From Thermoplasmata archaeon (GTDB lineage Archaea > Thermoplasmatota > Thermoplasmata > Lutacidiplasmatales > UBA184): a DNA stretch of 44,676 nt. This document shows, piece by piece, positions 12,725 to 42,148 of this stretch. Under the pieces are notes generated by a model. The model did no database searches. It worked only from the letters and a program-made list of their open reading frames with translations, and was not told the DNA's origin. A program made the translations under genes and the position numbers. The stretch lies in the NCBI GenBank assembly GCA_030038895.1, contig JASHQX010000030.1, forward strand, positions 1 through 44,676, written 5' to 3'. Within the stretch, counting starts at the first letter, position 1, and each line of letters starts with the position of its first letter.

Positions 12725-12785
12725 CTGGGGTGGGAAGGCCCGGCGCGTACATGAGGAACGACCCATCTCAGGTCGTCGGGGGAGA

Positions 12786-12860
12786 TGGGGCCGTCCGAAT
12801 TTGAATCGGAGTCTCTTGCACCCCAAGCAAGAAGGATGGTCCAAGCTACCCCACGGCCCC
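12786..12860 (-). tRNA. tRNA-Pro (anticodon GGG)
   Basis: Hand-folded 75 nt: acceptor GGGGCCG/CGGCCCC, anticodon arm CTTGC-TTGGGGT-GCAAG, T arm TCCGA-TTCAAAT-TCGGA, discriminator A. No CCA is encoded. Confidence 0.9.
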
Positions 12861-12921
12861 ACGCCGCGCCGGTGCGCGCGGACCCGGGGCGGTTAGATAA
12901 GGGTTCTGCCGGCGAGCGGTA

Positions 12922-13104
12922 CTAGTGGACGTAGAGCCAGGTGACGATCCCCACGACGGCGATGATCAGCGTGTTGAGCAGCGCGAGCCAGAAGAACGAC
13001 CAGAGCTCGGCCTTCCCCTCCTTCGGTCCGACGCTCGCCGGGGGGGTCGAGCTGCCCGGGTAGGGAGTGTAGGGCGTGTGGTACGTCTCGGTCTCGGAGC
13101 TCAT
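12922..13104 (-). CDS. Small (60 aa) single-pass membrane protein, hypothetical
   Basis: A Pro/Thr/Tyr-rich N-terminus is followed by one hydrophobic helix, LWSFFWLALLNTLIIAVVGIVTWLYV. Confidence 0.45.
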   Translation of the reverse strand: MSSETETYHTPYTPYPGSSTPPASVGPKEGKAELWSFFWLALLNTLIIAVVGIVTWLYVH

Positions 13105-13160: not shown

Positions 13161-13874
13161 CTAGCCCGCGAACCAGGGAAGCCGCGCGGCCGGTCCGCTC
13201 GGTTTCAGGACGAGCAGGTGGAGGTTCGAGCCGGGGTCGCCCGGTGCGTAGCTATCCCGGAGCGCGAGTTGGTAGAGGATGAACAACGCCTCCTCGTCCG
13301 ACTGAACCCCGAGCGAGCGGTGGACGTCGATGCCGAACCGGCTCCGAAGGATTCCGAGGAGCTCCTCGAAATCGATCTGACCCGACCCTTCGGACGACTG
13401 CGCCCGACGGAAGAGACCCGCGACGATCCCTGTCGCGAATCGGAGCACCTCCTTCGGGGAGGCGGGGCGGAGGTGGAAGTGGGGGGGCTCGGCGCCGCGG
13501 TCCGCCGGCGGGACCACTAGGATCGAGACCTCGTGGTCGACCGTCGTTCCCGGGGAGTGGGCGAGACGGGCCCACGCCGCCTCCGCGGCGTCGTCCGTCG
13601 GAACGACGAAGATCGCCCGAGTTGCGTGCGGCCGTCCGGCGGAGAGGCCCTCGACCCACCGGTCAATCCCCTCCGAGATCGTGGTCTCCCCTCCCCGGGG
13701 GAGGAAGACCGGGAACGTCCGGCGCGGTACTCCGGACTCCTGGACCCAGAACGCCGGCTCGACCGGCGCATGGCGCAGGCCGGGCGGCACACGGGAGTAA
13801 CCGAGACGCTTCAGCACGGTCTCGGCGGTCCGAAGTCGGTGGGACGACCCCCCGGCAGGGTCGGATTCGGGCAT
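13161..13874 (-). CDS. Hypothetical protein (237 aa)
   Basis: ATG start and coding-like GC3. I recognise no family motif. The N-terminal AETVLKRLGYSRV...AIFVVPTDDAAEAA is only loosely reminiscent of restriction-endonuclease-like folds. Confidence 0.55.
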   Translation of the reverse strand: MPESDPAGGSSHRLRTAETVLKRLGYSRVPPGLRHAPVEPAFWVQESGVPRRTFPVFLPRGGETTISEGIDRWVEGLSAGRPHATRAIFVVPTDDAAEAAWARLAHSPGTTVDHEVSILVVPPADRGAEPPHFHLRPASPKEVLRFATGIVAGLFRRAQSSEGSGQIDFEELLGILRSRFGIDVHRSLGVQSDEEALFILYQLALRDSYAPGDPGSNLHLLVLKPSGPAARLPWFAG

Positions 13875-13935
13875 TGGCGTGTCTAGGACGGCGTCGCGAG
13901 ATAAGCTCGACGCGTCCCGTTACCCCCGAACGACC

Positions 13936-14871
13936 TCATAGCGGGCCTCGAACCCCCACTCCGAGGAGCGGGGCGTTCGCCGCGATCGCCAAGATTACGA
14001 ACAGTAGGTACGGCCCGGAGTAGATGAATCCCCGCCGCGCCACGCGAGAGCTCACCTCAGTCCAGAGCGGGAGCGTGAGCGCGACGAACCCCGCCCCGAG
14101 CCCGACCAGGGCGAGGAGGACCGGCCAGGCGACCGCCCCGGTCCATCCGAGGAGGAGCGCCGCGGGAACGAGGAGCGCCGCCGAGACGACAACGACCCTT
14201 CCCGAGAGCGCGACATCGTCCATCCGCGGGAGCATCGGGAGGCCCGCGCGCTCGTAGTCGTTCCGGAGCAGGAGCGCAAGGCTCCAGAAGTGCGGGGGAG
14301 TCCAGAGGAAGACAAGGAGCGCGAACGCGAGGACCCCGGGGGTCCAGCTGCCGACGGCCGCGGCCCCTCCGGCGAGCGCGGGGGCGCTCCCGGCAAACCC
14401 GCCGATCACGATGTTCCAGCTCGAGCGGCGCTTGAGCCAGAGGGTGTAGACGACGACGTAGGTGAGCCCGCCGAGGAGGATCGAGAACCCGGTCAGCGGG
14501 TTCAGGAAGACCGTGCCGGCGCCAATCCCGAGGACGAGAAGGGCGAGCCCGAGCGCGAGGACGAGGTCCCCCCGGACGATCCGTTCATCGGGCAGCGGGC
14601 GGTGGCGGGTCCGCTTCATCCGGCGGTCGACGTCCCGGTCGAGGTAGTGGTTGAGCATCGCCGAGCCCGCCGAGGCGGCCGCTCCCGCGCCGACGAGGAT
14701 CGCGAGGCGCACTAGGTCGATCGTGCGGGGATCCGCGAGGAGGAACCCACCCACCGCGACGAGGCAGATGAGGGCGGTGATCCCCGGCTTCGCGAGCTCG
14801 AAGAGGTCCCGGGCGAGGCGTCGGGATGGGAGTTCGGACGCTGCGGCGATGGGTCCGTTGGGAGCGGTCAT
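13936..14871 (-). CDS. ctaB: Protoheme IX farnesyltransferase (heme O synthase)
   Basis: UbiA-family polytopic protein with NHYLDRDVDRRMKRTRHRPLP. Confidence 0.9.
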   Translation of the reverse strand: MTAPNGPIAAASELPSRRLARDLFELAKPGITALICLVAVGGFLLADPRTIDLVRLAILVGAGAAASAGSAMLNHYLDRDVDRRMKRTRHRPLPDERIVRGDLVLALGLALLVLGIGAGTVFLNPLTGFSILLGGLTYVVVYTLWLKRRSSWNIVIGGFAGSAPALAGGAAAVGSWTPGVLAFALLVFLWTPPHFWSLALLLRNDYERAGLPMLPRMDDVALSGRVVVVSAALLVPAALLLGWTGAVAWPVLLALVGLGAGFVALTLPLWTEVSSRVARRGFIYSGPYLLFVILAIAANAPLLGVGVRGPL

Positions 14872-14901
14872 GGGAGCGCCCCGGTCGGGGGAACGGTCCA
14901 G

Positions 14902-15489
14902 CTAGCCATTTCGGGGCTGGCCGAACGGCACCTCCGATTTCGAGGGGGGAACTTCGGGGCGGGGCAGGGCCATGCTCGGTGGGGAGTCGGAGACCTCGCT
15001 GGCCGCGCGGCGGACCCAGGCGACCACACGCGGAGGCAACTCGCGTAGGTTCGCGAGGACCGTAAGGAGGAGAAGGAGTCCGAAGAGCGCGGTCGCGATC
15101 CCGAGGTGGAGGAGGATGAACGGGAGCTCGAGCCCACTCTCGACGACGAGGCCCCCGAGGAGCGCCTCGGTCACGACCAGCGCGAGCGAGCCGAACGAGA
15201 GGCGGAGGAGGACCTTGCGGCCCCGCTCGTAGACGAGCGCGAGCAGCGTTACTACGAGGACCGAGACCGAGAGGAAGAACGCCGCGACGCGGTGGCTCCA
15301 TTCGGCGACCACCCCACCTTGGAACGCGGGAAGGAGGTTCCCGTTCCCGTAGCACGACGGCCAGTCCGGGCACGCGAGTCCGTTCCCGCTCGCCATCACA
15401 TTGCCGCCGAGAAGGATCGTCGTGTAGCAGAGGAGGCACGCCATCGCGGTGGCGACCCGGAAGAGCTCGTGGCCCCGCGTCCGCGCCAT
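14902..15489 (-). CDS. ctaA: Heme A synthase, short 4-helix archaeal type
   Basis: GGNVMASGNGLACPDWPSCYG motif, four hydrophobic helices, His in helices (EWSHRV, ILLHLG). It starts 4 nt after the coxI stop. Confidence 0.8.
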   Translation of the reverse strand: MARTRGHELFRVATAMACLLCYTTILLGGNVMASGNGLACPDWPSCYGNGNLLPAFQGGVVAEWSHRVAAFFLSVSVLVVTLLALVYERGRKVLLRLSFGSLALVVTEALLGGLVVESGLELPFILLHLGIATALFGLLLLLTVLANLRELPPRVVAWVRRAASEVSDSPPSMALPRPEVPPSKSEVPFGQPRNG

Positions 15490-15493
15490 CGGA

Positions 15494-17170
15494 CTACGGC
15501 GCCTCCGTCGGGGTCGCGGTCGGCAACGGGACCGGGACGCGCGCGGGTGCCGGAGCGGCGACCGGCCCGGTCATCTTGACCGAGAGCTCCTCGCCCCACG
15601 GGTCCGGGACCGTGACCGGCTCCCCCCCGTAGTAACTATAGACCATGTTGAACAGGAAGACGAGCTGCCCGATCCCGAGGACGTACGCCCCGAGGGTCGA
15701 GAGGAAGTTGAGCGCCTGGAAGTTCCCGTTCCAGAGATACGTGTAGACCCGGCGGGGCATCCCCTCCGCGCCGAGGATGAACATCGGGAACAGGAGGACG
15801 TTGGTCCCGACGTACGTCATCAAGAAGTGGATCTGGGCGAGCCGCTGGTTGTACCAGCGGCGCGTGATGATCGGGAAATAGAAGTAGATCCCGGCGAAGA
15901 GCGCCATGAGGGTCCCGCCGAGCAGGATGTAGTGGAAGTGCGCCACGACGAAGTACGTGCCGTGGTAGAGGTAGTCGATCGGGATCGACGCGAGCATGAG
16001 GCCGGAGAGGCCGCCGATGACGAAGCCGGTGATGAACGCGACGCAGAACCACATCGGGATCGCCATCCAGACGCGGCCCCCCCACAGGGTCGCGACCCAG
16101 TTGAACGTCTTGACCGCCGACGGGACGGCGATCGCCATCGTCGCGAGCATGAAGACGAACCGGATGTTCGTCGAGATTCCCGTGACGAACATGTGGTGCT
16201 CCCAGACCGCGAAGCTGAGCACCGCGAAGACGCCGAGCGCGATCGCCATCGCGCCGTAGCCGAAGATGTCCTTGCGCGCGAGCTTCGGGAGGATCGTCGA
16301 GACGAGACCGAAGGCCGGCAGCACCATGATGTAGACCTCGGGGTGCGCGAAGAACCAGAAGATGTTCTGGTAGAGCAGCGCGCCGCCGAGCGGAGTGCCG
16401 TTGACCGCGGCGAGGATGTGCGTCCCGAACACGCGGTCGCTCAAGACGAACGTGAGCGCGATCGAGAGGGACGGGAGCGCGAAGATGAGGAGGACCGAGT
16501 TGATCAGGATCGACCAGACGAAGAGCGGCATGTTCCAGTAGTGCACGCCCGGGGCCCGGTGCTTGGTGATCGTGACGAGGAAGTTGATCGCCCCGAGCAT
16601 CGAGGAGACCGTGAGGATGTGTAGGCCGAGGACCCACAGGTCGATCCCGTCCCCCGGGATCTGAACGGAGAGCGGGACGTAGCCGGTCCAGCCGGCGTTA
16701 GCGTTCGAGAGGATCAGGATGACCCCGGCCGGCGGGAGCATCCAGAACGCGATCGCGTTGATCCGCGGGAGCGCCATCTCCCGCGAGCCGATCATCGACG
16801 GGACGAGGAAGTTGCCGAAGCCGGCGAGGACCGGCATGATGAACATGAAGATCATCAGGACCCCGTGCATCGTGAACAGGGTCGAGTAGACGTCCGGGGT
16901 GATCCCAAGGGTCGTCTGGGGGTCGAGGCCGAGGCCCTGCACGAACCCGAGATCCGTCCGGATGAGGGTCGCGTAGATCCCGCCGATGAAGAAGAAGACG
17001 ATCCCGGTGACGATGTACATGATCCCGATCCGCTTGTGATCGGTTGTGAACATCCACGTCTTCATCGTGCGGACGAGCCACGTCCCCTGGTAGGTGAACA
17101 GGTAGACGAGGAACGAGGCGAGCGCGACGATGAGGCTCACTTCGACCACGGGGACCGTGACGTTGGTCAT
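15494..17170 (-). CDS. coxA: Heme-copper oxidase subunit I
   Basis: [14 protein letters not shown]..., [40 protein letters not shown] lies 7 nt before the ATG. Confidence 0.95.
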
Positions 17171-17183
17171 CGCATCCTCCCGG

Positions 17184-17564
17184 TCATCCCGCGATAAGAC
17201 CCCCTAGTATGTACGCGATCGCGGCCGCGGCGATCACGACGATGAGGATCCGGAGGAACCGCGCCTCGGCCTCCTCCGTGATAGGCCCGGGCGGCGTCGG
17301 CTTGAACTTCCGTCCGAGCGGCCACGACCGGTAGGTTCGGTCCACGATGTGTACGATCAGCGCGGCCATCAGAAACATGAGCGCGACCGCGATCCCGAAC
17401 GACTCCTGGGCACCGGGGCTCGTGATCGGCCCGAGCCGGACAGCGTAGACGATCAGCACCGCGATCCCGAGGAGCATCAGGACAGTGACGGCGGTGTAGA
17501 GGTCCAGCACCCGCTCGCGCGCCGCGCGCACGTCCGAGGGAAGGGCGGGGGCGGGGCTACTCAA
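17184..17564 (-). CDS. Membrane protein (about 126 aa, 3 predicted helices), unassigned respiratory-operon component
   Basis: Three hydrophobic segments. TTG start overlapping the upstream stop by 8 nt (GTG starts further in are possible). Confidence 0.55.
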
Positions 17565-17820
17565 AGAGCTCTACCCTCCGCTGGTTCGCGCCCCGGTATC
17601 GGTCGACCCGATAGAGGATCCCGGCGATGAACAGGAATGCGAGGAAGGCCATGGTCCCCCCCGCGGTGGCCACCAGGAGGTACCAGAGGTTCCCGGCGGC
17701 CGCGCCGAGGATGCCGTAGACGAACGTCGCACCGCCCGCGGTCCCGACGATGAGGAAGCCGAGAAGGACTCCCCAGAGGGAGGTGGTGTTCCACTTCGGC
17801 GATGCGGGGGGGCTATTCAC
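17557..17820 (-). CDS. Small membrane protein (about 87 aa, 2 helices), unassigned
   Basis: GTG 17820 overlaps the cytochrome b stop (GTGAATAG). The sequence is WGVLLGFLIVGTAGGATFVYGILGAAAGNLWYLLVATAGGTMAFLAFLFIAGILY. The track start at 17883 would overlap cytochrome b by 70 nt. Confidence 0.5.
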   Translation of the reverse strand: MNSPPASPKWNTTSLWGVLLGFLIVGTAGGATFVYGILGAAAGNLWYLLVATAGGTMAFLAFLFIAGILYRVDRYRGANQRRVELFE

Positions 17821-19162
17821 TGGACTTGACCTCCGACGCCCCGACCGGGGCGGCTGGCGCCGCGGTTGGGAGTGCGTACACACCGAGGAACGGCGTCCCG
17901 CGCGCGGCGAGCCGTTTGAGGTAGTTGCGGCGGTACCGCCAGTAGAAGAGCGCGACCGCGATCCCGGTCACAAGGAAGAGGGGCCCGAGCGTCTCGGCGA
18001 CGAGCATCGGGGCGATCTGCACCCCCGGCGTCTCGCCGCCCCAGACGGTCATCAGAACGAAGAACTCGAGGAAGGACGTAGCGAGCCAGATGAAGAACGG
18101 CCGGTCCCGCGGGTGGGTCCGCTTCGAGCGATCGAGGTACGGCAGGAACAGGAAGTACAGGATCAGGACCGTCGTCACGCCGATCGCGAGGACGGGGGTC
18201 ACGTACTGGAAGTCAACGAACTTGAACAGCCAGAGGAAGTACCAGTCTGGCTCGGTCACGACGCCCGCGGCCGCGAGGTTCCCGACGTACGTGGGAAGGC
18301 TCCACGGCCAGAGCGCCGCAATCCCGAGTAGGAGCCCGACGTAGAGAAGCCCCCACTTCGTAATGTACCAGAAAATGTGGGGCATGAACGGGACGTGGGA
18401 CTTGTCCTCCTTCTCGTTGTACCGCCGACGCTGGGTCGGGTCCGAGGTCGCCGGCGGCGCGATCCCGTGCGACTCGAACAACGCAATGTGAGCGTAGAGG
18501 AGGGCCGCGAGACCGAGCGGGATCAGGAGGACGTGCGCATCGAACATCCGGGAGAGGAGCCCCTGCGCCGTTCCATCCGCGAGGATGAACGGCCCGAGGA
18601 GCGGGCCGATGGTGGGGAGGCGCAGCGCGAGGACAATCCCGACGTTCGTCGCGTTGTAGGAGAGCTGGGTGTACGGAAGGAGGTAGCCGGTGAACCCCAT
18701 CCCGAGGGTCAGGATCATGAGGAGCGTCCCGACCATCCAGGAGAACTCGCGTGGCGCCTTGTACACCCCGAGGTAGTACCCACGGAAGAAGTGGACGAAC
18801 ATGAGAAAGATCATCGCGTAGGCGCCGTAGAGGTGGCTTGTGAGGAGGAGCGAACCCATCGGAACGGAGTGGAGGATGTAGTAGGTCGAGCACCACGCCG
18901 CCGGCGCTGCCGAGTACGCCCCGACGGGCTGTCCGCACGCGGTGAGGGTCGGGGCGGTGCTTGGTTGGTAATAAAGGAGGAGAAGCGCGCCCGAGACGAC
19001 CTGGTAGAGGAACGCGTTCACGACGAACGCGCCGGTCCAGTACGAGGGCTTGAACGTGAACTCCGGCTGCGGGCGGAGCGCCCACTTCTTCATCGAGGTC
19101 CGGTCCTCGACAAAACCCCAGATGCGGTTCAGCGTCCGATTGTACCAGTTCGAGAACCCCAT
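17813..19162 (-). CDS. Cytochrome b (fused b6/subunit IV-like) of a bc-type complex
   Basis: 449 aa and polytopic, with an N-terminus typical of archaeal SoxC/SoxN-like cytochrome b (YWTGAFVVNAFLYQVVSGALLLLYY...). It starts 10 nt after the Rieske stop, with a GGAG in between. Confidence 0.8.
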   Translation of the reverse strand: MGFSNWYNRTLNRIWGFVEDRTSMKKWALRPQPEFTFKPSYWTGAFVVNAFLYQVVSGALLLLYYQPSTAPTLTACGQPVGAYSAAPAAWCSTYYILHSVPMGSLLLTSHLYGAYAMIFLMFVHFFRGYYLGVYKAPREFSWMVGTLLMILTLGMGFTGYLLPYTQLSYNATNVGIVLALRLPTIGPLLGPFILADGTAQGLLSRMFDAHVLLIPLGLAALLYAHIALFESHGIAPPATSDPTQRRRYNEKEDKSHVPFMPHIFWYITKWGLLYVGLLLGIAALWPWSLPTYVGNLAAAGVVTEPDWYFLWLFKFVDFQYVTPVLAIGVTTVLILYFLFLPYLDRSKRTHPRDRPFFIWLATSFLEFFVLMTVWGGETPGVQIAPMLVAETLGPLFLVTGIAVALFYWRYRRNYLKRLAARGTPFLGVYALPTAAPAAPVGASEVKSSE

Positions 19163-19172
19163 CGCCGGACTC

Positions 19173-20000
19173 CTACGTCGGGAAGTTGCACAGGATGACC
19201 GGCGTCTCTTTCACGAGCTGCGAGGTCGCGCCGACCCCGTAGTCGCCCTGAAGGGTGTTGAGGTGCCCATTGACCGGCGGGCTCCCGGGACGCATCCCAT
19301 TCGCGAAGATGTTCCCGGCCGCGTCCGTTTCGAGGAGCACCTGCGGGAGCGGGAGCACGGCCGGCCCGGTCAGGTTCGCGGCCGAGTTCGTGACATCGTA
19401 GGTCGACCCGTGGCACGAGCAGTGGATGTAGAAGGTGTGGCCGCCCGGCGTTTCGGGGCACGTACCGGGCGGATAGAACGCGATCGCGGGTGCGGGGCAC
19501 CCCAGGTGCTGGCAGATCGCGCTGTAGGCGACGATCGACTGGTGCGTCCCGATCCCGTACGGGACGTTCTCGGCGCCGTTCGAGCCGTTCGGCGTCCCGC
19601 TCGCCGGGTAGAGATTGAGTAGGAAGTTCGGCTCGTTCTCGAGCGGGTAGTAAAACAGGTAGAGCTCGCTCGTCTCGACGTTGTACTCGCTCTCGACCTT
19701 CGCGACCGTGAGGGGACTACCGTCGGTGTCGATCAACTGGACCTTGGGATAGCTCGAGATCCCGATCGTGGGGGGCTGGACGAACTGGAGCGTCCCCCCG
19801 ATCAATCCGCCCGCCCCGGCGCCGACGAGGCCGGCGACCGCGAGCAGCTTCAAGACGTTGCGCTTCGTTTCGTCGACCTCCTCGCCGCCGTTCGAGGGCA
19901 GGGAGGCGACCCGCCGAATCCGGCCGACAGGAAAATCGAACCGGGACGAGCGGAACGACGCCATCGGGCAGGTCGCGGCGCAGGCCGGGAAGTTCGGCAT
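19173..20000 (-). CDS. Rieske 2Fe-2S protein
   Basis: Box I CQHLGC and box II CSCHGS. KRNVLKLLAVAGLVGAG is a signal-anchor with a Tat-like KR motif. ATG 20000 overlaps the upstream stop (TGATG). Confidence 0.9.
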   Translation of the reverse strand: MPNFPACAATCPMASFRSSRFDFPVGRIRRVASLPSNGGEEVDETKRNVLKLLAVAGLVGAGAGGLIGGTLQFVQPPTIGISSYPKVQLIDTDGSPLTVAKVESEYNVETSELYLFYYPLENEPNFLLNLYPASGTPNGSNGAENVPYGIGTHQSIVAYSAICQHLGCPAPAIAFYPPGTCPETPGGHTFYIHCSCHGSTYDVTNSAANLTGPAVLPLPQVLLETDAAGNIFANGMRPGSPPVNGHLNTLQGDYGVGATSQLVKETPVILCNFPT

Positions 20001-20185
20001 CACAGCGTCCTCCCCGAGGTCTCGGGCCGGGCGTCGTCGACGCCTTCGGGCGAAGGGACCCGGGCGTCGCCGGGAAGCTCGGCGTTTTCGCTCCCGCGAT
20101 AGACCGCCCAGGTGATCCCGATCCCCATCAGCACGACGAGGATCTCCGTGAGTGTGACGATCTGGTCCGGTGAAAGGCCGCTCAT
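20000..20185 (-). CDS. Small (61 aa) single-pass membrane protein, unassigned
   Basis: MSGLSPDQIVTLTEILVVLMGIGITWAVYRG... ATGA overlap with the upstream gene. The track ORF (to 20488) is an Arg/Pro-rich extension. Confidence 0.5.
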   Translation of the reverse strand: MSGLSPDQIVTLTEILVVLMGIGITWAVYRGSENAELPGDARVPSPEGVDDARPETSGRTL

Positions 20186-20589
20186 CGATACCCTCCGACC
20201 TCGTTCGGCACGACCGGCATCGTCATCGTCCAGGTAGGGACAGGAACGCCCCCGGTCCAGGGCGAGACTGGGGACGGGACCGGCGGGGGGATGGGTGGGG
20301 CGGGAGGGACCGCGGGTGGGACCCGAACGGCCGCCGGGATCCCCCGGCTCTGCGTCGGGATCGGCTCGAGGCCGAGAAGCGCTCCGCGCACGGTGAGCGG
20401 CGTGCCCGGCGGGGGAAGCGGGAGGTCCGCGGCCTTCGCGAACTCCCCGAGGAGCTCCTGCTTCAGGCGCCCCGCGCGCCCGTACCAACGACCGAGCGTC
20501 CGGAGAAGCTGGCCACTGTCCTTGCCGAGCAGGAGGAAGAGCGCCGCGGCCCCGATGATGAGCCAGTCGACGTCGGAGAAGAGCGCCAT
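20182..20589 (-). CDS. TatA/TatB-like Sec-independent translocase component with a Pro-rich tail
   Basis: N-terminal helix DWLIIGAAALFLLLG, then an amphipathic segment LLRTLGRWYGRAGRLKQELLGEF, then a Pro-rich C-terminus. It starts 4 nt after tatC. Confidence 0.6.
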   Translation of the reverse strand: MALFSDVDWLIIGAAALFLLLGKDSGQLLRTLGRWYGRAGRLKQELLGEFAKAADLPLPPPGTPLTVRGALLGLEPIPTQSRGIPAAVRVPPAVPPAPPIPPPVPSPVSPWTGGVPVPTWTMTMPVVPNEVGGYR

Positions 20590-20593
20590 CGGT

Positions 20594-21427
20594 TCAACCG
20601 ACCCCTGCCGCGGCCACCGGGCCGCGACGTTTGGCGCCCAACCGTTCCCAGCGCGCCGCGAAGTACGCCCCGCCGAAATAGAGCCCGATCATCGGCGCCG
20701 CGATGAGGAGCATGGTGATCCCCGAGTTGTCCGGCGTGACGATCATCCCGAAGACGAGCGCGCCAAGAACCGCGGCGCGCCAGTGCTGACGCCAGGTCGA
20801 GGACCGGACGACGCCCATCCGGGTGAGCGCATAGATGAACACCGGCAACTCGAACACAACGCCAAATGCGAGGGAGTAGAGCAGGGCGAAGGTGACGAAG
20901 TCCTGCACTCCGAGGTAGGGCTGGAGGCCCATCGCGGCGACGTACCGGAAGAGGAGGAGGAAGGTGAACGGCGTGAGGATGAGAAGCCCCCCCACGGTCC
21001 CGATCGCGAAGAGGACCGTCGCGGGAATCCCGATCGAGCGCAGGAGCGCCCGCTCGTTGCGTCGGAGCGCGGGAACGAGGAACGCGCCGACCTCGTGGAC
21101 GATCCAGGGCATCCCCACGATCGCGGTGAGGAGCAGCCCGATCTCCATCTGAACCATGACCGAGTCGCCCACCCCCACGTTGAGGAGCTTCACGCCCGGC
21201 GGGAGCATCCACGACACCATCGCGTGGAAGACCTGCGCAGTGACGTTGTAGAACGGGCTGGGCCAGGGGTACACGAACGGAACCGAGTGCCCGAAGACCG
21301 AGACCGTGATCGGGCGTAGCTCGAAGAGAAGCAGGAAACCGAAAATCGAACCGAGGACGAGCGCAATGCGGACTAAGCGGCGTCGGACCTCCCCGAGTAC
21401 CTCGAGGATTCGGCTCAAGTCGCTCAT
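20594..21427 (-). CDS. tatC: Sec-independent protein translocase TatC
   Basis: Six-helix protein with ...LAFGVVFELPVFIYALTRMG... and ...IVTPDNSG... motifs. Confidence 0.85.
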   Translation of the reverse strand: MSDLSRILEVLGEVRRRLVRIALVLGSIFGFLLLFELRPITVSVFGHSVPFVYPWPSPFYNVTAQVFHAMVSWMLPPGVKLLNVGVGDSVMVQMEIGLLLTAIVGMPWIVHEVGAFLVPALRRNERALLRSIGIPATVLFAIGTVGGLLILTPFTFLLLFRYVAAMGLQPYLGVQDFVTFALLYSLAFGVVFELPVFIYALTRMGVVRSSTWRQHWRAAVLGALVFGMIVTPDNSGITMLLIAAPMIGLYFGGAYFAARWERLGAKRRGPVAAAGVG

Positions 21428-21532
21428 CCGCGCCTCCGAAAGCCCTCTCGAGACCCGAGCCGGGCGGGGGCCCGGGCGTACCGAGAATCGATCGAGGCTC
21501 GTCCCTCGGGCATGCCGGGTCGGGGGCCCGGC

Positions 21533-21742
21533 CTAGTGCCCCGGCGGCGTCGGCGTGCTGGCGCCCGCCGCGGCGCGTGCCTGCTCGGCCTTCAGTTCTT
21601 GTTCGCTCTCGAGGCGTCCCTTCTTGAACTCCCCGACCGAGCGGCCCAGGTTGCGGGCCAGCTGCGGGATCTTGCTGGATCCATAGAAGAGGATCCCTGC
21701 CACCACGGCGATGATCAACCAGTCGTCGATGGAGTCGAACAC
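21533..21742 (-). CDS. tatA: Sec-independent protein translocase TatA
   Basis: GTG 21742 is preceded by GGAGGG at 5 nt. (M)FDSIDDWLIIAVVAGILFYGSSKIPQLARNLGRSVGEFKKGRLE... is the classic TatA architecture. The track shows it only as the tail of a 236-aa artefact ORF. Confidence 0.8.
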   Translation of the reverse strand: MFDSIDDWLIIAVVAGILFYGSSKIPQLARNLGRSVGEFKKGRLESEQELKAEQARAAAGASTPTPPGH

Positions 21743-21777: not shown

Positions 21778-21793
21778 ATATGGAGTTCGTACG
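21778..21793 (-). promoter_or_regulatory. CGTACG core + N6 + ATAT box upstream of the tat-respiratory operon
   Basis: The gene-sense strand reads CGTACG AACTCC ATAT. The ATAT begins 39 nt before GTG 21742. Confidence 0.4.
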
Positions 21794-21846
21794 GGCGGAA
21801 CCGGACGGATACCAACCGTCCGGACCCGGGGTAGATAAAACGCCGG

Positions 21847-22890
21847 TCAGGCGGCCTCGATCAGGACGGTTTCGCTCCCGGCGGCGACCGCCCGGTCGAT
21901 CGCGAGCTCGGCGAGGAGCGAGAGGCACCCCACGCTGCGGGGCAGCCACTGCAGGGTCGAGCGGGACGTCACGCTGCTGGATGTGCGGCGGCCCTTGACG
22001 ACGGTCGTGGCCAGCGTTTCCGAAAAGGAGGTGTTCTGTTGGTACACTTCGCAGGCGTGATCGAGCGAGGGGTGCATCAGCGCTTCCATCACCGCCTTCA
22101 GGTGGCCCTTCATCTCGGGGACGTGGGTCGTGAGCGAATCCCGGACCTCGGCCGGAAGCTTCGGGGCCTCCTCGTAGAGCACCCCGAGCGCCTCGCCGAA
22201 CAGCTGGGCCAGCTCCTCGAGCGCATGGACCGCGACCCGCCACTCGAGAAGCTGGCGCGGGTCAGGGCTGCCGATCCGTCGCGCGAGTGCCCAGTCCCGG
22301 CTCGCGAGGAAGAGCTGGCGGACCAGGAGCGCGAGGACCTTGTTCGCCTCCTCCTCGAGCGTCGCGAGTCGACGGTTGCGCGAGGTGCGCTGGACGATCG
22401 ACTCCATCTCCTCGAGGAACGCGATCAAGATCATCTTCATCCGCTGGACGAGCTGGGGGAGCCCGTACTTCGACGGATCGATGAAGTTCTGAAGGACCAT
22501 CCGGTTCGACTCCTGGGCGACCACGGATACTCCGAGGAGACCGCGAGCCGCTCCGAGGACCTCCTCGACCCGGTCCGGGGCGAGGGGCATGTCCGTGCGT
22601 ACTTCGATCGCGTCGTGCCCGACTCGGTACGCGCCGACGATGAGGCGCTCAAGGACCCCCGGAGTGTCGAACGCGCGGGCTTGTACGAGAAACGGAGCTC
22701 CCGAGGAAGCGGCTCCAGGAACGGGCGCGGGCTTGAGGTAGAGGGCGCCGTCGTCGTTCTGGTCAAAGACGATGAGGTCACCGGGCCGAAGGTTCATCGC
22801 CTCGGCCCACGGTTTCGGCAACGTGACCGCGATCGATGAATGGCCCGCTTTCAGCACCCGTCGCTCCCGATTCGGCGTCCCCCAAGCCAT
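21847..22890 (-). CDS. AbrB/SpoVT-domain + PhoU-domain regulator (archaeal PhoU-like)
   Basis: The N-terminal RVLKAGHSSIAVTLPKPWAEAMNLRPGDLIVF is a SpoVT/AbrB swapped-hairpin motif. The remainder is all-helical with PhoU-like repeats. ATG 22890. Confidence 0.7.
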   Translation of the reverse strand: MAWGTPNRERRVLKAGHSSIAVTLPKPWAEAMNLRPGDLIVFDQNDDGALYLKPAPVPGAASSGAPFLVQARAFDTPGVLERLIVGAYRVGHDAIEVRTDMPLAPDRVEEVLGAARGLLGVSVVAQESNRMVLQNFIDPSKYGLPQLVQRMKMILIAFLEEMESIVQRTSRNRRLATLEEEANKVLALLVRQLFLASRDWALARRIGSPDPRQLLEWRVAVHALEELAQLFGEALGVLYEEAPKLPAEVRDSLTTHVPEMKGHLKAVMEALMHPSLDHACEVYQQNTSFSETLATTVVKGRRTSSSVTSRSTLQWLPRSVGCLSLLAELAIDRAVAAGSETVLIEAA

Positions 22891-22903
22891 CCGAGTTCCC
22901 CCC

Positions 22904-22927
22904 AACCTACTACAAGGTTCGTAGGTT
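22904..22927. promoter_or_regulatory. Inverted repeat AACCTAC-N10-GTAGGTT in the AT-rich promoter region of the AbrB-PhoU gene
   Basis: Perfect 7-nt arms. It lies 14-37 nt upstream of ATG 22890, next to GTTAAAC (a TATA-like box on the minus strand). It contains TTCGTAGG, one mismatch from the TTCGTACG element. Confidence 0.4.
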
Positions 22928-22985: not shown

Positions 22986-23720
22986 TCACCCCGTCGGCGT
23001 GAGCGGAGGCGAGGGAGGATGCGGCGATTCTCCGGGGGTCGGAGGCTCCGCGTACCCGAGGCGTTCGGGTGGCATCTCGAACTCCGAGCCGCGGCGCCGG
23101 CCGACGACGAATCCGAGGACGATCGCGATCACCACCATGCTCACGATCGTCCCGATGATAATGAAGACCGCCGCCCCCGGACCGGTCGCACCGGAGGAGA
23201 CCGTGAGGTTCGCGGGGAGGACCTCGCCGAAGGCGATGAAACCGTACATCCCCGAGGCGAAGTGCCCGGGCTCCTCGCAGACGAACTCGTACCAGCCGAC
23301 CCCCGGCGACGTGAACGTCTTGGTGACCACGTCCCCGGAGCCGGTCACGTTGATGCTGACGAGGGCGCCGTGCGCCGCGAACTCCGCGGGGATGTCGGCG
23401 GACGGCCAGGGGAGGACGGTTCCTTCCAGGTTCAGGATCGAGAACGTGTGGGGAAGCGTGTCGGCGTCCGTGACGGTGACGGTGACCGTGGTGTTGGTCG
23501 CGACCTGCTGGAAGGTGTTGGGGTCGAACATGAACGGCGCGGTCGTCGTGACGTCCACCGTCGTGGTAGTGTCGACATGGGCCGAGGCGGCGCGAGCCTC
23601 CTCGGTCGCGACCCAGCCGCCCCCCACGATGAGCAGCGCTACGCTCACGAGGAGCGTGACCAACGTGCGGGCCCTCCCTCCTCGAATCGACATTCCCATT
23701 CTCGCCGACGCGAATCGCAC
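22986..23720 (-). CDS. Sulfocyanin/halocyanin-like type-1 blue copper protein with a C-terminal membrane anchor
   Basis: Cu ligands are HTF...CEEPGHFASGM. There is an N-terminal signal/anchor and a C-terminal helix AAVFIIIGTIVSMVVIAIVLGFVV. Start is GTG 23720 or ATG 23699. Confidence 0.8.
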   Translation of the reverse strand: MRFASARMGMSIRGGRARTLVTLLVSVALLIVGGGWVATEEARAASAHVDTTTTVDVTTTAPFMFDPNTFQQVATNTTVTVTVTDADTLPHTFSILNLEGTVLPWPSADIPAEFAAHGALVSINVTGSGDVVTKTFTSPGVGWYEFVCEEPGHFASGMYGFIAFGEVLPANLTVSSGATGPGAAVFIIIGTIVSMVVIAIVLGFVVGRRRGSEFEMPPERLGYAEPPTPGESPHPPSPPLTPTG

Positions 23721-23760: not shown

Positions 23761-23806
23761 CCATCCACCCGGCGGGACGGAACCCAGCCCCGCGGGTGGG
23801 CATCAG

Positions 23807-23828
23807 TTCGTACGTGGGGAATATGTAG
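23807..23828 (+). promoter_or_regulatory. TTCGTACG + N6 + ATATGTAG upstream of coxII
   Basis: ttcgtacg tgggga atatgtag. The ATAT begins 30 nt before ATG 23851, giving leaderless geometry. Confidence 0.45.
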
Positions 23829-23850: not shown

Positions 23851-24078
23851 ATGCGCCTTCGCCGGGGTCTCGAGCGTATCCGAGCCTCGCTTCGCCCGGC
23901 CGGTCTCGCCGTGGCCGGCGGGTTTCTATTCGCGTCCTCGAACCTCCAGGAGACGAACGATCTGGTCTGGACGATGGTCGCGATCGGGGTCGCGGGCTCG
24001 ATCGTGACGTTTTCCTTCCTCGTCTACTCGATCTGGCGATTCCGCGACCCCAAGGCGAAGGGACGGCGGCATGGTTAA
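23851..24078 (+). CDS. Oxidase subunit II, N-terminal fragment (TM1)
   Basis: MRLRRGLERIRASLRPAGLAVAGGFLF...LVWTMVAIGVAGSIVTFSFLVYSIWRFRDPKAKGRRHG*. It ends where the HxN..E..WT loop motif of CoxII begins. Confidence 0.6.
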   Translation: MRLRRGLERIRASLRPAGLAVAGGFLFASSNLQETNDLVWTMVAIGVAGSIVTFSFLVYSIWRFRDPKAKGRRHG

Positions 24079-24532
24079 CAAGTACGAGGTTGCCTGGACG
24101 CTCGCGGTCGTCGCGCTCATCGCCGGGGTCAGCGTGTACTCCACAATCCTGCTCTACCAGCTCGACCAGCTTCCGGGCGATCCGACCGAATACGTCGACG
24201 TCACCGGCCACCAGTGGTACTGGGAGTTCTGCTACCCGGTGAACAACACGTGCTTCAACTCGAGCTACGACGCATCGACGAACACCGTCAGCGGCGGGGC
24301 GTTATGGGCGTCCCCGGGCGCGGAGCTCCAGATCAACGTTACGGGCGCGGACGTGATCCACTCATTCAACATCCCACAGCTCGGCGTGCGGATCGACGCG
24401 ATCCCCGGCCGGATGAACCACTTTGCCTTCCAGGTCCCCACCGTCGCAGCGGGAACCAGCTACCTGATCCAGTGCACCGAATTCTGCGGCGAGTTTCACG
24501 GAACGATGCGCTCGTTCCTCATCGTGACCTGA
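24071..24532 (+). CDS. coxB: Oxidase subunit II, TM2 + CuA cupredoxin domain
   Basis: MVNKYEVAWTLAVVALIAG..., GHQWYWEF, VIHSFNIPQLG, and the CuA site CTEFCGEFHGTM. Its ATG overlaps the stop of the preceding fragment (ATGGTTAA). Confidence 0.85.
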   Translation: MVNKYEVAWTLAVVALIAGVSVYSTILLYQLDQLPGDPTEYVDVTGHQWYWEFCYPVNNTCFNSSYDASTNTVSGGALWASPGAELQINVTGADVIHSFNIPQLGVRIDAIPGRMNHFAFQVPTVAAGTSYLIQCTEFCGEFHGTMRSFLIVT

Positions 24533-24588: not shown

Positions 24589-25620
24589 TCAGGAGTGGCC
24601 ACCGTGTCCACCGGCGCGCCCTCTACGGGGGAAGCGACCAGTGAACGATGCGATAACCGCGAGGAGGACCCCGATCACGAGAAGCCCGCCGGACCCGGCG
24701 AGTACCCAGGTCTCGACGACCGCGGTGCTAGGGGGCGCCGGCGGGGCCGGGACCGGCACGTTGACGTAGAGGAGCCCGTCCATGCCGCTAGCGAAGTGCC
24801 CGGGGACCTCGCAGATGTACTGGTAGACGCCCGGAGCGGCGAGCGTAAAGTTCGCCCAGACGGAGCTGCCGGCTCCCGCCGGCACCGTCGCGGAGACGAG
24901 AGGGGGGTGGGCGGTGAAGTACGAAGTGAAGTTGGTGGGAGAGAGCGTATAGTTCGACTGAGCGGCGAGTGTGAACGTGTGCCCGAAACTCCCCATGTTC
25001 GTCACTAGGACGTCGACCGACTCGGGGAAGTGGGGCGCGGTGACCGCGAGCTCGTTCGGAACGAACTGGAGGGAGTCGGTCGTGGTCTCGTTGAGCCGGA
25101 CCCCTGGACCCGAGAACGTGACGTTGAGGAACCCGAACATTCCGGCTTGGAACTGGAACGGTACGAGCGAGACGAACTCGAACGAGTCGCCGCCGACCGA
25201 CGCGTTGAGCGAGATGTTCGCGTACGCCTGCTGGCCCGGGGCGACCGAGACGTTCGCGAGCGAGCCGTTTTTGGCGAAGAACGACGAGAGCTCCGCCGGG
25301 GTCCAGGAGGTGTTGAGAATGACCCCCGGGACCTTCGAAACGGTGAACGTGTGGTTGTAGTGGCCGAGGTTATCGAGGTGGACGGTGAGGGTCGAGTTCG
25401 TGGCACCGACGAGCGAGCGGGGCACGAACCGCGGCGTGTCGGTCATGTTTACCGTGACGGTCGAATTGCGGCTCAGGGGGCGGGCGAGCCCGACCGATGG
25501 TGCGGAGGGCAGGTGCGTGATCGCCGCCGCGACGGGAAGGGCCAGCGTCGCAAGGAGCAGGCCCGCGGCCAGCCATGGAGCCGCGCGACGCCACGGTCCG
25601 GGATGTCGGGCCTGGCGCAA
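24589..25620 (-). CDS. Two-domain cupredoxin (degenerate N-domain, intact type-1 Cu C-domain), membrane anchored, sequon-rich
   Basis: Domain 2 has GHTF...YICEVPGHFASGMDG. Domain 1 has NHTF...FVSLVPFQFQAGMFG (Cys to Ser, His to Gln). A C-terminal helix is present. TTG start, preceded by AAGGGGGA. Confidence 0.75.
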   Translation of the reverse strand: MRQARHPGPWRRAAPWLAAGLLLATLALPVAAAITHLPSAPSVGLARPLSRNSTVTVNMTDTPRFVPRSLVGATNSTLTVHLDNLGHYNHTFTVSKVPGVILNTSWTPAELSSFFAKNGSLANVSVAPGQQAYANISLNASVGGDSFEFVSLVPFQFQAGMFGFLNVTFSGPGVRLNETTTDSLQFVPNELAVTAPHFPESVDVLVTNMGSFGHTFTLAAQSNYTLSPTNFTSYFTAHPPLVSATVPAGAGSSVWANFTLAAPGVYQYICEVPGHFASGMDGLLYVNVPVPAPPAPPSTAVVETWVLAGSGGLLVIGVLLAVIASFTGRFPRRGRAGGHGGHS

Positions 25621-25667
25621 GTCGATTCCCCCTTCTTTCGGACACCGACGCGACCTGAGGTGCGTTG

Positions 25668-25685
25668 ATATGCGCGATGTACGAA
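25668..25685 (-). promoter_or_regulatory. TTCGTACA + N6 + ATATCAAC upstream of the two-domain cupredoxin
   Basis: The gene-sense strand reads TTCGTACA TCGCGC ATATCAAC. The ATAT begins 51 nt before TTG 25620. Confidence 0.4.
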
Positions 25686-25716
25686 TCGCCCGCTCTCGCC
25701 GGCCCGCAGGGCAGCG

Positions 25717-26688
25717 TTAACGGTTCGCGAGGCTCCCCGGGTCCCCCGACGCGAGGGGGCGGGGCACCGGCTCGCCCGAGGGAGCCTCGCCTTCCACCGA
25801 GCGGGCGATCCAGGGCCGGAACCTTGGACCTTGGTAGAACCTCCAGTACAGGTAGGTGGACTCGACCCCCATCACAAGGGCCATGAGGCCGCCGAACGCC
25901 GACGCGGCGATCGGGGAAGCCTGGGTGGCCGCGACCGCGATCCCGCCCGCGGTCATCGCGAGGAACGCAGAGGTGAGGCCGACGAAGAACCGCGCCTCCT
26001 CCGGACCGGCCCGTCCGCGGGCGAGGCGACGCACGAGGACGGCGGACACGCCTCCCATCAGCGCCGCCATGAGGATCCCTCCGACAGTGGGGTAGGCGGG
26101 GACCCAGGGGGCGATGACCGCGGCGAGCGTCAGCGCGACGAATCCTCCCTGTTCGGCCCGGGAGATCGGCGCCCAGAGGAGCACGGCGGCCATCACCCCC
26201 GCCATCGACCACAGAAACCACACGGACGTGAGCCCGCCCGCAATGGTGTTCAAAACGGAGAGAGGCGTCGCCGCTCCGCCGTAGGTAAAGAGGACCCCCA
26301 TGAGAACTTCGACGCCGGTGGCATCGACCGCGAGGAGCGCGGGCCAGAGAACGTTCCCCCGCGCGACGCGGCGGTCGTGGAACAGGATGAGCGAGACGAA
26401 CCAGAACCCGGCCGGGGCCATCATCATGAAGTTGAACGCGAGGAGCACGAGCGTCCAGGTCGTCGTCCCGTTCGAGTTCAGGAAGACGTAGAGGAGCGAC
26501 ATCATCAGGACGCTTCCGCCGAAGATCACGCCGAGCCCGAGCGTCAGCTGGGTCAAGAGGGGGGGTCGGCCGTCGGCCGGGAGCACCTTCCCCAGGATGA
26601 AGATCGTGATCCCGACCATCCCGACGGCGATGATCACGTAGGCAAGCGGGTCCGGGGGCATCGCGAGGGGCGGCAGGGGAAGGTCCAT
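25717..26688 (-). CDS. Polytopic membrane protein (323 aa, about 8-9 helices), unknown function
   Basis: Continuous hydrophobic segments and a single His. I recognise no CoxIII or transporter motif. ATAAGAAA lies about 24-31 nt upstream of ATG 26688. Confidence 0.6.
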   Translation of the reverse strand: MDLPLPPLAMPPDPLAYVIIAVGMVGITIFILGKVLPADGRPPLLTQLTLGLGVIFGGSVLMMSLLYVFLNSNGTTTWTLVLLAFNFMMMAPAGFWFVSLILFHDRRVARGNVLWPALLAVDATGVEVLMGVLFTYGGAATPLSVLNTIAGGLTSVWFLWSMAGVMAAVLLWAPISRAEQGGFVALTLAAVIAPWVPAYPTVGGILMAALMGGVSAVLVRRLARGRAGPEEARFFVGLTSAFLAMTAGGIAVAATQASPIAASAFGGLMALVMGVESTYLYWRFYQGPRFRPWIARSVEGEAPSGEPVPRPLASGDPGSLANR

Positions 26689-26770
26689 CGCGACGGCTCG
26701 AGACGGACGGCTTTCTTATGGACCCGGTTACGACCGGATCCCCGGATCCTCGGAGGATCGGTCCGGCCGG

Positions 26771-42075: not shown

Positions 42076-42148
42076 GGGCGCGTAGTCTAGTGGTTATGAC
42101 GTCACCCTGACACGGTGAAGGTCGCCAGTTCGAATCTGGCCGCGCCCA
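42076..42148 (+). tRNA. tRNA-Val (anticodon GAC)
   Basis: Hand-folded 73 nt: acceptor GGGCGCG/CGCGCCC, anticodon arm TCACC-CTGACAC-GGTGA, T arm GCCAG-TTCGAAT-CTGGC, discriminator A. Confidence 0.9.

Follow-up and report, generated by a model that had tools for sequence, protein, structure and literature searches.

A conserved aerobic-respiration locus of Lutacidiplasmatales-type Thermoplasmata joins Tat export, Rieske/cytochrome b and haem-copper oxidase genes

The DNA analysed here (the window) is a stretch of 44,676 nucleotides (nt), contig JASHQX010000030.1 (G+C about 68%), from an archaeon of the Thermoplasmata that has not been cultured and is related to Candidatus Lutacidiplasma. Between positions 13936 and 21742 its minus strand carries a row of eleven closely packed open reading frames (ORFs), in which genes for twin-arginine translocation (Tat) are followed by genes for a Rieske protein, cytochrome b, oxidase subunit I and the synthases of haem O and haem A, with small membrane proteins encoded between them. 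It is a conserved aerobic-respiration locus of Lutacidiplasmatales-type Thermoplasmata, for which gene assignments, sequence motifs, synteny, purifying selection and a gene fusion are shown below. The row had been described in an initial annotation made from the DNA letters, and every gene and every junction was borne out when the ORF coordinates were checked, with all starts, stops and spacings as first listed. From tatA to ctaB, the genes and the junctions that separate them are as follows.

21533-21742, minus strand: tatA, 69 amino acids (aa), GTG start, PF02416 at E = 1.2e-12 and TIGR01411 at 57.5 bits (cut-off 53.9); 105 nt to tatC
20594-21427, minus strand: tatC, 277 aa, full profile of PF00902 covered at E = 1.5e-40 (139.7 bits, cut-off 25.1); 4 nt to orf135
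20182-20589, minus strand: orf135, a TatA-family paralogue with a long proline-rich tail, recognised by BLASTP against the TatA of the window; ATGA overlap with orf61
20000-20185, minus strand: orf61, a single-pass membrane protein (one transmembrane (TM) segment) with a conserved acidic tail and no family match; TGATG overlap with the Rieske gene, to which it is translationally coupled
19173-20000, minus strand: Rieske iron-sulphur protein, 275 aa, SoxF/SoxL2-like, PF00355, with cluster-binding boxes CQHLGC and CSCHGS; 10 nt to cytochrome b
17813-19162, minus strand: cytochrome b, 449 aa, a single protein with both the N- and the C-terminal part, PF13631, PF00033 and PF00032; 8-nt overlap with orf87
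17557-17820, minus strand: orf87, a two-helix membrane protein with 246 homologues; 8-nt overlap with orf126
17184-17564, minus strand: orf126, a three-helix membrane protein with 357 homologues; 13 nt to coxI
15494-17170, minus strand: coxI, subunit I of an A-type haem-copper oxidase, 558 aa, extra helix at the N-terminus, PF00115 at E = 1e-142; 4 nt to ctaA
14902-15489, minus strand: ctaA, a compact haem A synthase, 195 aa, half of profile PF02628 at E = 3e-16, motif CPDWPSC; 30 nt to ctaB
13936-14871, minus strand: ctaB, haem O synthase, TIGR01473 at 252.9 bits (cut-off 210.3) and PF01040

Ribosome-binding motifs of the GGAGG type stand ahead of nine of the eleven genes, tatA and the three small ORFs orf61, orf87 and orf126 among them. 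These three membrane proteins had been set down at the outset as belonging to no recognisable family, and Pfam indeed finds none for them, nor for orf135, with zero matches even at E ≤ 10. In pairwise comparisons with six relatives, the ratio of non-synonymous to synonymous substitution (dN/dS) was 0.14–0.37 for orf61, 0.33–0.67 for orf87 (the highest in the row) and 0.21–0.40 for orf126, against 0.09–0.47 for the known genes of the row. As the values of the small ORFs (0.14–0.67) overlap those of tatA and ctaA, we conclude that they encode proteins under purifying selection, and their treatment as genuine genes is upheld by ratios below 1 for all of them.

Gene order was the same in 59 of 59 related species loci, these being the species-representative loci that were long enough, with one genome per species scanned. 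They include that of Candidatus Lutacidiplasma silvani (L057), whose CoxI and orf126 proteins share 77% and 52% identity with those of the window, which marks the window as a further, fairly divergent member of the Lutacidiplasmatales locus. Searches with twenty window proteins (tblastn) returned an invariant block wherever the contig was long enough, which begins with coxII on the opposite strand, continues through the genes for a blue copper protein and an AbrB-domain protein to tatA, tatC, orf135 and orf61, and runs on through Rieske, cytochrome b, orf87, orf126, coxI, ctaA and ctaB to orf237 and orf60; the outer genes, encoding a CBS protein, orf332 and ftsJ, vary in presence among the relatives. 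The junctions are conserved along with the order: the orf87/orf126 junction is -8 in all 60 loci in which it was read and the cytochrome b/orf87 junction is -8 in 58 of 61, the orf135/orf61 junction is -4 in 53 of 55, and the orf61/Rieske junction is -4 or -1 in 53 of 56. Two contigs of a sister lineage (L066 and L067), with CoxI 62–64% and TatC 63–65% identical to the window proteins, carry in order tatA, tatC, an orf135-like gene, an orf61-like gene, Rieske, cytochrome b, an orf87-like gene, CoxI, ctaA, ctaB and an orf237-like gene. Their flanking genes differ from those of the window, so the linkage between tat and respiratory genes has outlasted rearrangements around it. An arrangement first noticed in a single contig is in this way shared by its relatives, both order and overlaps recurring in all 59 species loci and in the sister lineage.

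The members of the block that lie on either side of the row are these.

24071-24532, plus strand: coxII, 153 aa, one TM segment and a CuA domain (PF00116, E = 5e-18; CuA motif CTEFCGEFHGTM), divergent from the row
23851-24078, plus strand: a membrane ORF of 75 aa (ORF call), overlapping coxII by 8 nt
22986-23720, minus strand: blue copper protein, sulfocyanin/rusticyanin-like, with a signal peptide, a C-terminal membrane anchor and type-1 copper ligands in HTF...CEEPGHFASGM
21847-22905, minus strand: AbrB-domain protein, 352 aa (PF04014, E = 1e-10; TIGR01439)
13161-13874, minus strand: orf237, a soluble protein, always after ctaB, with its own box CTTATCT at 13899-13905
12922-13104, minus strand: orf60, a single-pass membrane protein, with its own conserved TTAAGAA-like (TAAGAA) box in the spacer

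Most of the relatives with full annotation have an ORF of 75–87 aa at the equivalent place beside coxII (two have 34 and 122 aa there), and CoxII reads as a split subunit, the 75-aa membrane ORF being predicted to supply the helix that CoxII is without. The initial annotation had placed the oxidase core within the row; this holds for coxI, which lies inside it, but CoxII is split and divergent and the copper carrier has a promoter region of its own. Against the sulfocyanin model TIGR03094 the blue copper protein scores 21.5 bits (E = 1e-4, cut-off 168), and against rusticyanin 20.6 bits, also below the cut-off; weak matches to PF06525 occur in relatives, and an AxA cleavage-type site and the C-terminal TM segment are conserved. 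On the far side of coxII, and convergent with it, lies a pair of minus-strand genes that is kept beside the cluster in most relatives: a 332-aa protein (25717-26715) for which no family match was found and, directly downstream, cup375 (24589-25716), a 375-aa protein with two cupredoxin-like domains. At the other end of the block, orf237 occurs in every locus and also in the sister lineage, has no Pfam or NCBIfam match, and is preceded by a conserved gagCTTATCtc box that starts ~30 nt before its ATG, and orf60, likewise always found after ctaB, carries the conserved motif PYTP.PG.StP...LW.FFWL. Rfam detects zero RNA families in the region; a tRNA-Pro called by ARAGORN at 12784-12861 (minus strand), overlapping the 5' end of the ftsJ ORF, is probably false (no Rfam tRNA at E ≤ 1), and a genuine tRNA-Val is located at 42076-42148 (plus strand).

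The arrangement is already known and is not new, because it was described for Lutacidiplasmatales by Sheridan et al. 2022 (Nat Commun 13:4110, PMC9287336), and the earlier remark that it was unfamiliar from characterised loci does not stand. In their account of the locus, the complex IV genes of Lutacidiplasmatales adjoin those for complex III, haem A/O synthesis, Tat and a cupredoxin, together with six unknown proteins, five of which have TM domains. The locus is described there as conserved within orders and variable between orders, cytochrome c genes as absent from the phylum Thermoplasmatota, and all coxA genes as belonging to subfamily A1. These six unknown proteins agree in number with orf135, orf61, orf87, orf126 and orf60 plus the soluble orf237, and orf237 and orf60 are probably the fifth and sixth proteins counted. 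That published description of the locus gives adjacency only, without an operon, junction overlaps, promoters, subunit roles or regulation.

Two components of a Tat translocase, a protein of the TatA/E family and TatC, are encoded at the head of the row. The label "tatA/B-like" first attached to orf135 is justified by an alignment of its first 45 residues with the TatA of the window (46% identity over 41 aa, E = 1e-6, BLASTP), which spans the TM helix and the amphipathic helix; the tatA query itself matches orf135 in three loci, and the gene is conserved in 54 orthologues and matched by neither a Pfam nor an NCBIfam model. On this alignment orf135 is a TatA paralogue and TatB-like, and a candidate for the TatB role. 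Judging from the functions of their families, TatA, TatC and the TatB-like orf135 would export folded, cofactor-loaded proteins, of which the first would be the Rieske protein; its gene comes three places further along the row, and it has a KR-variant signal anchor. In more than 90% of 56 orthologues the Rieske signal reads VDETKRNvLKL followed by a hydrophobic stretch. Ahead of the KR motif the protein carries a conserved extension of ~45 residues (residues 1-45, 19866-20000, minus strand) with C-x4-CP and FPVGQxRRV. The neighbouring cupredoxins would probably be Tat substrates too, and in cup375 a conserved RR lies just ahead of the hydrophobic stretch. In Bacillus subtilis, phoD-tatAd-tatCd is, like other operons of its kind, a case in which a Tat translocase is encoded and expressed with its substrate; the present locus differs from it in substrate, in domain of life and in scale, since here the translocase heads a whole respiratory segment together with cofactor synthesis.

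Alternatively, the tat genes may be the general Tat system of the cell, their position reflecting inherited linkage and the Rieske protein being one of many substrates, which we regard as a serious possibility, though not the one we would choose. Domain scans detect no second tat gene within the 44.7-kb window, TatA and TatC are ordinary members of their families, and at least three different exported metalloproteins are encoded nearby, so that the Tat system is not specific to the Rieske protein. Yet more than 50 species have tatC, orf135, orf61 and Rieske linked through overlaps or gaps of 4 nt, and this linkage persists in the lineage with rearranged flanks, as is expected if co-expression has been selected.

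Upstream of the row and within its longest spacer, the following elements bear on how the genes may be transcribed and controlled.

21832-21838, minus strand: TTTATCT, a TATA-like box about 95 nt upstream of tatA, candidate promoter of a tatA-ctaB unit
21785-21791, minus strand: TACGAAC motif (core CGTACGAAC), candidate operator, ~48 nt upstream of the tatA start
22917-22923, minus strand: TACGAAC within the palindrome AACCTAC-N10-GTAGGTT that lies upstream of the AbrB-domain gene
23806-23812, minus strand: TACGAAC in the divergent coxII/copper-protein region, just downstream of a CTACATATT box
21424-21513, minus strand: a 29-codon ORF filling the tatA-tatC spacer, with a conserved ATG (GGCATGCCCGAGG) and a stop that overlaps the tatC start (ATGA)

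In 44 aligned abrB-tatA spacers the box upstream of tatA is retained as tTTATCt. The whole window has three copies of TTATCT, all of them between genes and upstream of a gene on the minus strand, and in the aligned spacers conserved TATA-like boxes are present upstream of tatA, orf237 and orf60 only. Because the overlaps are conserved, ribosome-binding motifs are present and a lone TATA-like box lies upstream of tatA, the sequence is best read as a single transcription unit from tatA to ctaB, which is the most likely organisation, with orf237 and orf60 as separate units. Transcription would begin from the TTTATCT box, and ribosomes would be passed from gene to gene by means of the overlapping stop and start codons. 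The initial annotation had the eleven genes expressed as one unit, and to this extent, as a reading of the DNA sequence, its proposal is sustained.

It is also conceivable, although we consider it unlikely, that the cluster is conserved and nevertheless yields two or more transcripts, for example an abundant tatA transcript that is ended or processed in the 105-nt spacer, with internal promoters before Rieske or coxI. TatA is usually required in excess over TatC, and the tatA-tatC spacer is the sole long gap in the row, is mostly 103–108 nt long across species, holds the conserved GGCATGCCCGAGG and in the sister lineage extends to 500–640 nt, with a 202-aa gene in L067. Against this, neither tatA-tatC, ctaA-ctaB nor any other internal spacer contains a conserved TATA-like box or T-run, RNAalifold found zero conserved structure in 18 tatA-tatC spacers, and from orf135 to orf126 the stop/start overlaps hardly vary. 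The few AT-rich octamers within the 7.8-kb row are not conserved where checked, and TATAGTTA, an AT-rich stretch within coxI and ~145 nt upstream of ctaA, was rejected as an internal promoter because orthologues have GC-ending codons at that site. A scan for sigma-70 promoters and intrinsic terminators returned nothing above background, with bacterial models that are uninformative for an archaeon.

The small ORF in the tatA-tatC spacer is itself a recurrent feature. From the conserved ATG it extends over 19–30 codons, mostly 25–30, across 43 loci; it overlaps the tatC start in 25 of these, most of the 16 further cases that are in frame end 6 nt upstream, and the peptide sequence is not conserved. 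The longer spacers of the sister lineage hold ORFs of 160 codons (L066 5211-5693) and 202 codons (L067 5246-5854), which also end at tatC. This ORF, of uncertain status, may serve in coupling, or it may simply result from the conserved start context, which alone would end two of the three reading frames there.

The TACGAAC motif is found at -44 to -51 upstream of tatA in essentially every locus that holds the region, with a second copy at ~-80 in some. Its distance to the start of the AbrB-domain gene is 18 nt in the window and ~32 nt in most relatives, and in the divergent coxII/copper-protein region 32 distinct sequences give the consensus agCTaCATATt.cccgCGTACGAACCG, with 54 motif matches across the loci. 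Of 1.05 Mb scanned, the three small regions hold ~125 matches and the remaining ~1 Mb holds 72, the latter near chance, and the sites occupy the same positions in L001-L063, L067 and L068. Because TACGAAC is concentrated at three promoter regions and near chance elsewhere, this distribution suggests one regulator for all three promoters; the AbrB-domain protein encoded within the cluster, whose gene is kept directly upstream of tatA, is the candidate, and would act via the putative operator CGTACGAAC.

The respiratory proteins themselves can be placed by their closest relatives of solved structure. For the Rieske protein this is SoxF of Sulfolobus (1jm1, E = 1e-15), and the best NCBIfam model is that of SoxL2 (TIGR03171, E = 1e-38, below the model cut-off). 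In cytochrome b, the Rieske protein, CoxI and CtaA the catalytic motifs are intact. Cytochrome b has four haem-ligand histidines, His110/His124 and His210/His225, in b6-like 14-residue spacing and PDWY at 305, and its closest solved structures are those of cytochrome b6. CoxI is closest to subunit I of actinobacterial aa3 oxidases (8hcr, 6adq and 7rh5, about 430 bits, best 431) and contains the motifs HPEVY, HHM and HFHY; the oxidase has CuB/haem ligands in subunit I and CuA in subunit II, as in the A family. ORF domain scans found no c-type cytochrome in the window. On these homologies, the Rieske protein and the b6-like cytochrome b would oxidise quinol, and electrons would pass, with no c-type cytochrome involved, to the membrane-anchored blue copper protein, which is encoded just upstream behind its own promoter. 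From there they would reach the CuA of the split, divergently transcribed CoxII and then the A1-type CoxI, at which oxygen would be reduced, and CtaB and the compact CtaA would supply CoxI with the haem O and haem A it requires.

The SoxM-like reading, proposed from the outset, is supported. The chain shares with the SoxM supercomplex of Sulfolobus acidocaldarius a Rieske protein of the SoxF/SoxL2 type (SoxF being the closest Rieske structure), a homologue of cytochrome b, a blue copper carrier, encoded here just outside the row, a subunit II with CuA, a subunit I of the A type and freedom from c-type cytochrome. Unlike in SoxM, CoxII is split, the copper protein falls below the sulfocyanin and rusticyanin cut-offs, and the small proteins have no detectable counterpart. 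SoxM itself (the soxEFGHI / soxM system) is a fusion of subunits I and III, whereas the 558-aa CoxI is covered by COX1 alone, and Tat and haem A/O genes are not known to be part of the sox operons. The best description of the chain is thus SoxM-like and cytochrome-c-free, from quinol to oxygen; that it forms a supercomplex is something we infer. The actinobacterial bcc-aa3 system (qcrCAB / ctaCDEF), to which the closest solved CoxI belongs, is an obligate supercomplex of Rieske/cytochrome b and oxidase without a soluble carrier, but it uses a di-haem cytochrome c subunit, CtaE (subunit III) and CtaF, none of which is present here, and its genes are not known to be linked to tat. In the ba3 oxidase of Thermus thermophilus, subunit II has one TM segment and a separate small subunit, IIa, supplies the second helix; the 75-aa ORF and the 153-aa CoxII resemble IIa and II in layout, and they differ in that ba3 is a B-family oxidase, CoxI here is A-type, and subunit IIa is only half as long as the 75-aa protein.

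Of the small membrane proteins, orf61 is marked by the conserved motif AELPG..DD..DTRGRTL. Homologues of orf87 are 85–91 aa long, mostly 87–88, among the 120 matches listed of 246, and its C-terminal motif ILYRVDRYRG..RR is invariant or nearly so; a candidate match to mitochondrial COX8B was discarded as being at chance level (E = 0.16). The named homologues of orf126 come from "Thermoplasmata archaeon" metagenome-assembled genomes. A set of 1.84 billion proteins, clustered at 50%, contains only 10 representatives of orf126, and the homologues keep an invariant His72 and YR.WPLGR. An AlphaFold2 model of orf126 consists of three long helices (predicted local distance difference test (pLDDT) score 77) and has zero matches among solved structures (Foldseek). 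Neither orf87 nor orf126 has a family or fold match (Pfam at E ≤ 10, NCBIfam and a profile search of the sequences of solved structures).

One of the ten orf126-related clusters (P0249) is a 770-aa CoxI with an N-terminal extension, and a search with it returned six more fused proteins, giving seven in total (P0249, P0251-P0256); the fused genes of the sister lineage lie at L066 10001-12334 and L067 10001-12256. Residues ~150–260 of the fused proteins align with ~10–80 of orf126, that is, helices 1–2 including His72 (40–48% identity, E = 1e-12 to 4e-19), and the CoxI alignment begins at residue 31 of the window CoxI, the fusion being without helix 3 of orf126 and without the extra N-terminal helix of the window CoxI. 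From a reading of the charge distribution we infer that the fusion keeps the membrane topology consistent. Ahead of the orf126 helices, the fused N-terminus also carries an extracytoplasmic beta-rich domain. A metagenome scan with the fused protein met only unrelated CoxI genes (42–44% identity).

Because its first two helices are fused to CoxI in seven sister-lineage proteins, which is the strongest evidence for a subunit role, orf126 is a probable CoxI-associated oxidase subunit and permanent partner. More generally, orf61, orf87 and orf126 would be lineage-restricted small membrane proteins of the SoxM-like assembly, with orf126 very probably binding CoxI. The initial annotation had put all three forward as candidate supercomplex or assembly subunits: they are real and conserved, and for orf126 the proposal gains from the fusion to CoxI. 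That the three are instead assembly or insertion factors (a Rieske escort, or for haem or copper delivery) and not stoichiometric subunits appears improbable to us: genes for assembly are often placed at junctions such as theirs, ctaA and ctaB, which are genes of biogenesis, share the row and the invariant His and Asp in helix 2 of orf126 could bind metal or haem transiently, but fusion to CoxI is what is expected of a permanent partner, and the searches brought up nothing that resembles a known assembly factor.

Taken together, the identity of the locus, the tatA-ctaB unit, Tat export, the cytochrome-c-free electron path and the small subunits form an explanation that we consider likely to be right as a whole, and several observations count against it. 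The TKRNVLK of the Rieske protein fits S/T-R-R-x-F-L-K except that KR replaces RR, and among orthologues of the blue copper protein only about half have RR, so that for both Tat dependence is plausible. TTATCT is about as frequent in the window as base composition would lead one to expect, and the weight of the putative promoter therefore rests on its position and conservation. Archaeal promoters can also sit inside coding sequence and so escape a search for conserved AT-rich boxes, and the 105-nt tatA-tatC spacer may hold a processing or attenuation site. On the side of the oxidase, no COX3/subunit III was found among the ORFs scanned in the window; the idea that orf87 and orf126 are a split subunit III found no support, their profiles matching no solved structure, and the AlphaFold2 model of the fused protein P0251 (pLDDT 63, below 55 in the fused part) is too poor to show helix packing.

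More tentatively, and on balance doubtfully, the locus might be a self-contained module in which Tat is translationally coupled to the Rieske protein, a bc-aa3 supercomplex dispenses with both cytochrome c and subunit III and includes four to five lineage-specific subunits, and three promoters are under the control of AbrB via CGTACGAAC. In such a module orf126, with its His72, would dock on CoxI and perhaps replace subunit III or bind a cofactor.

The details that are new here are the TatA paralogue orf135, the fusion of orf126 helices to CoxI and the presence of TACGAAC at three promoter regions, none of which forms part of the published description of the locus in PMC9287336. As the arrangement has already been published, the remaining value lies in testable hypotheses, namely a tatA-ctaB transcript, new small subunits, one of them backed by a fusion, and a shared operator with a candidate regulator, and none of these would overturn current understanding. 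For the biology of these abundant, uncultured archaea of acid soil and peat, the locus shows oxygen respiration that is free of cytochrome c, and it provides a clear example from nature in which the genes of an export machine for proteins stand with those of the complex that it serves.

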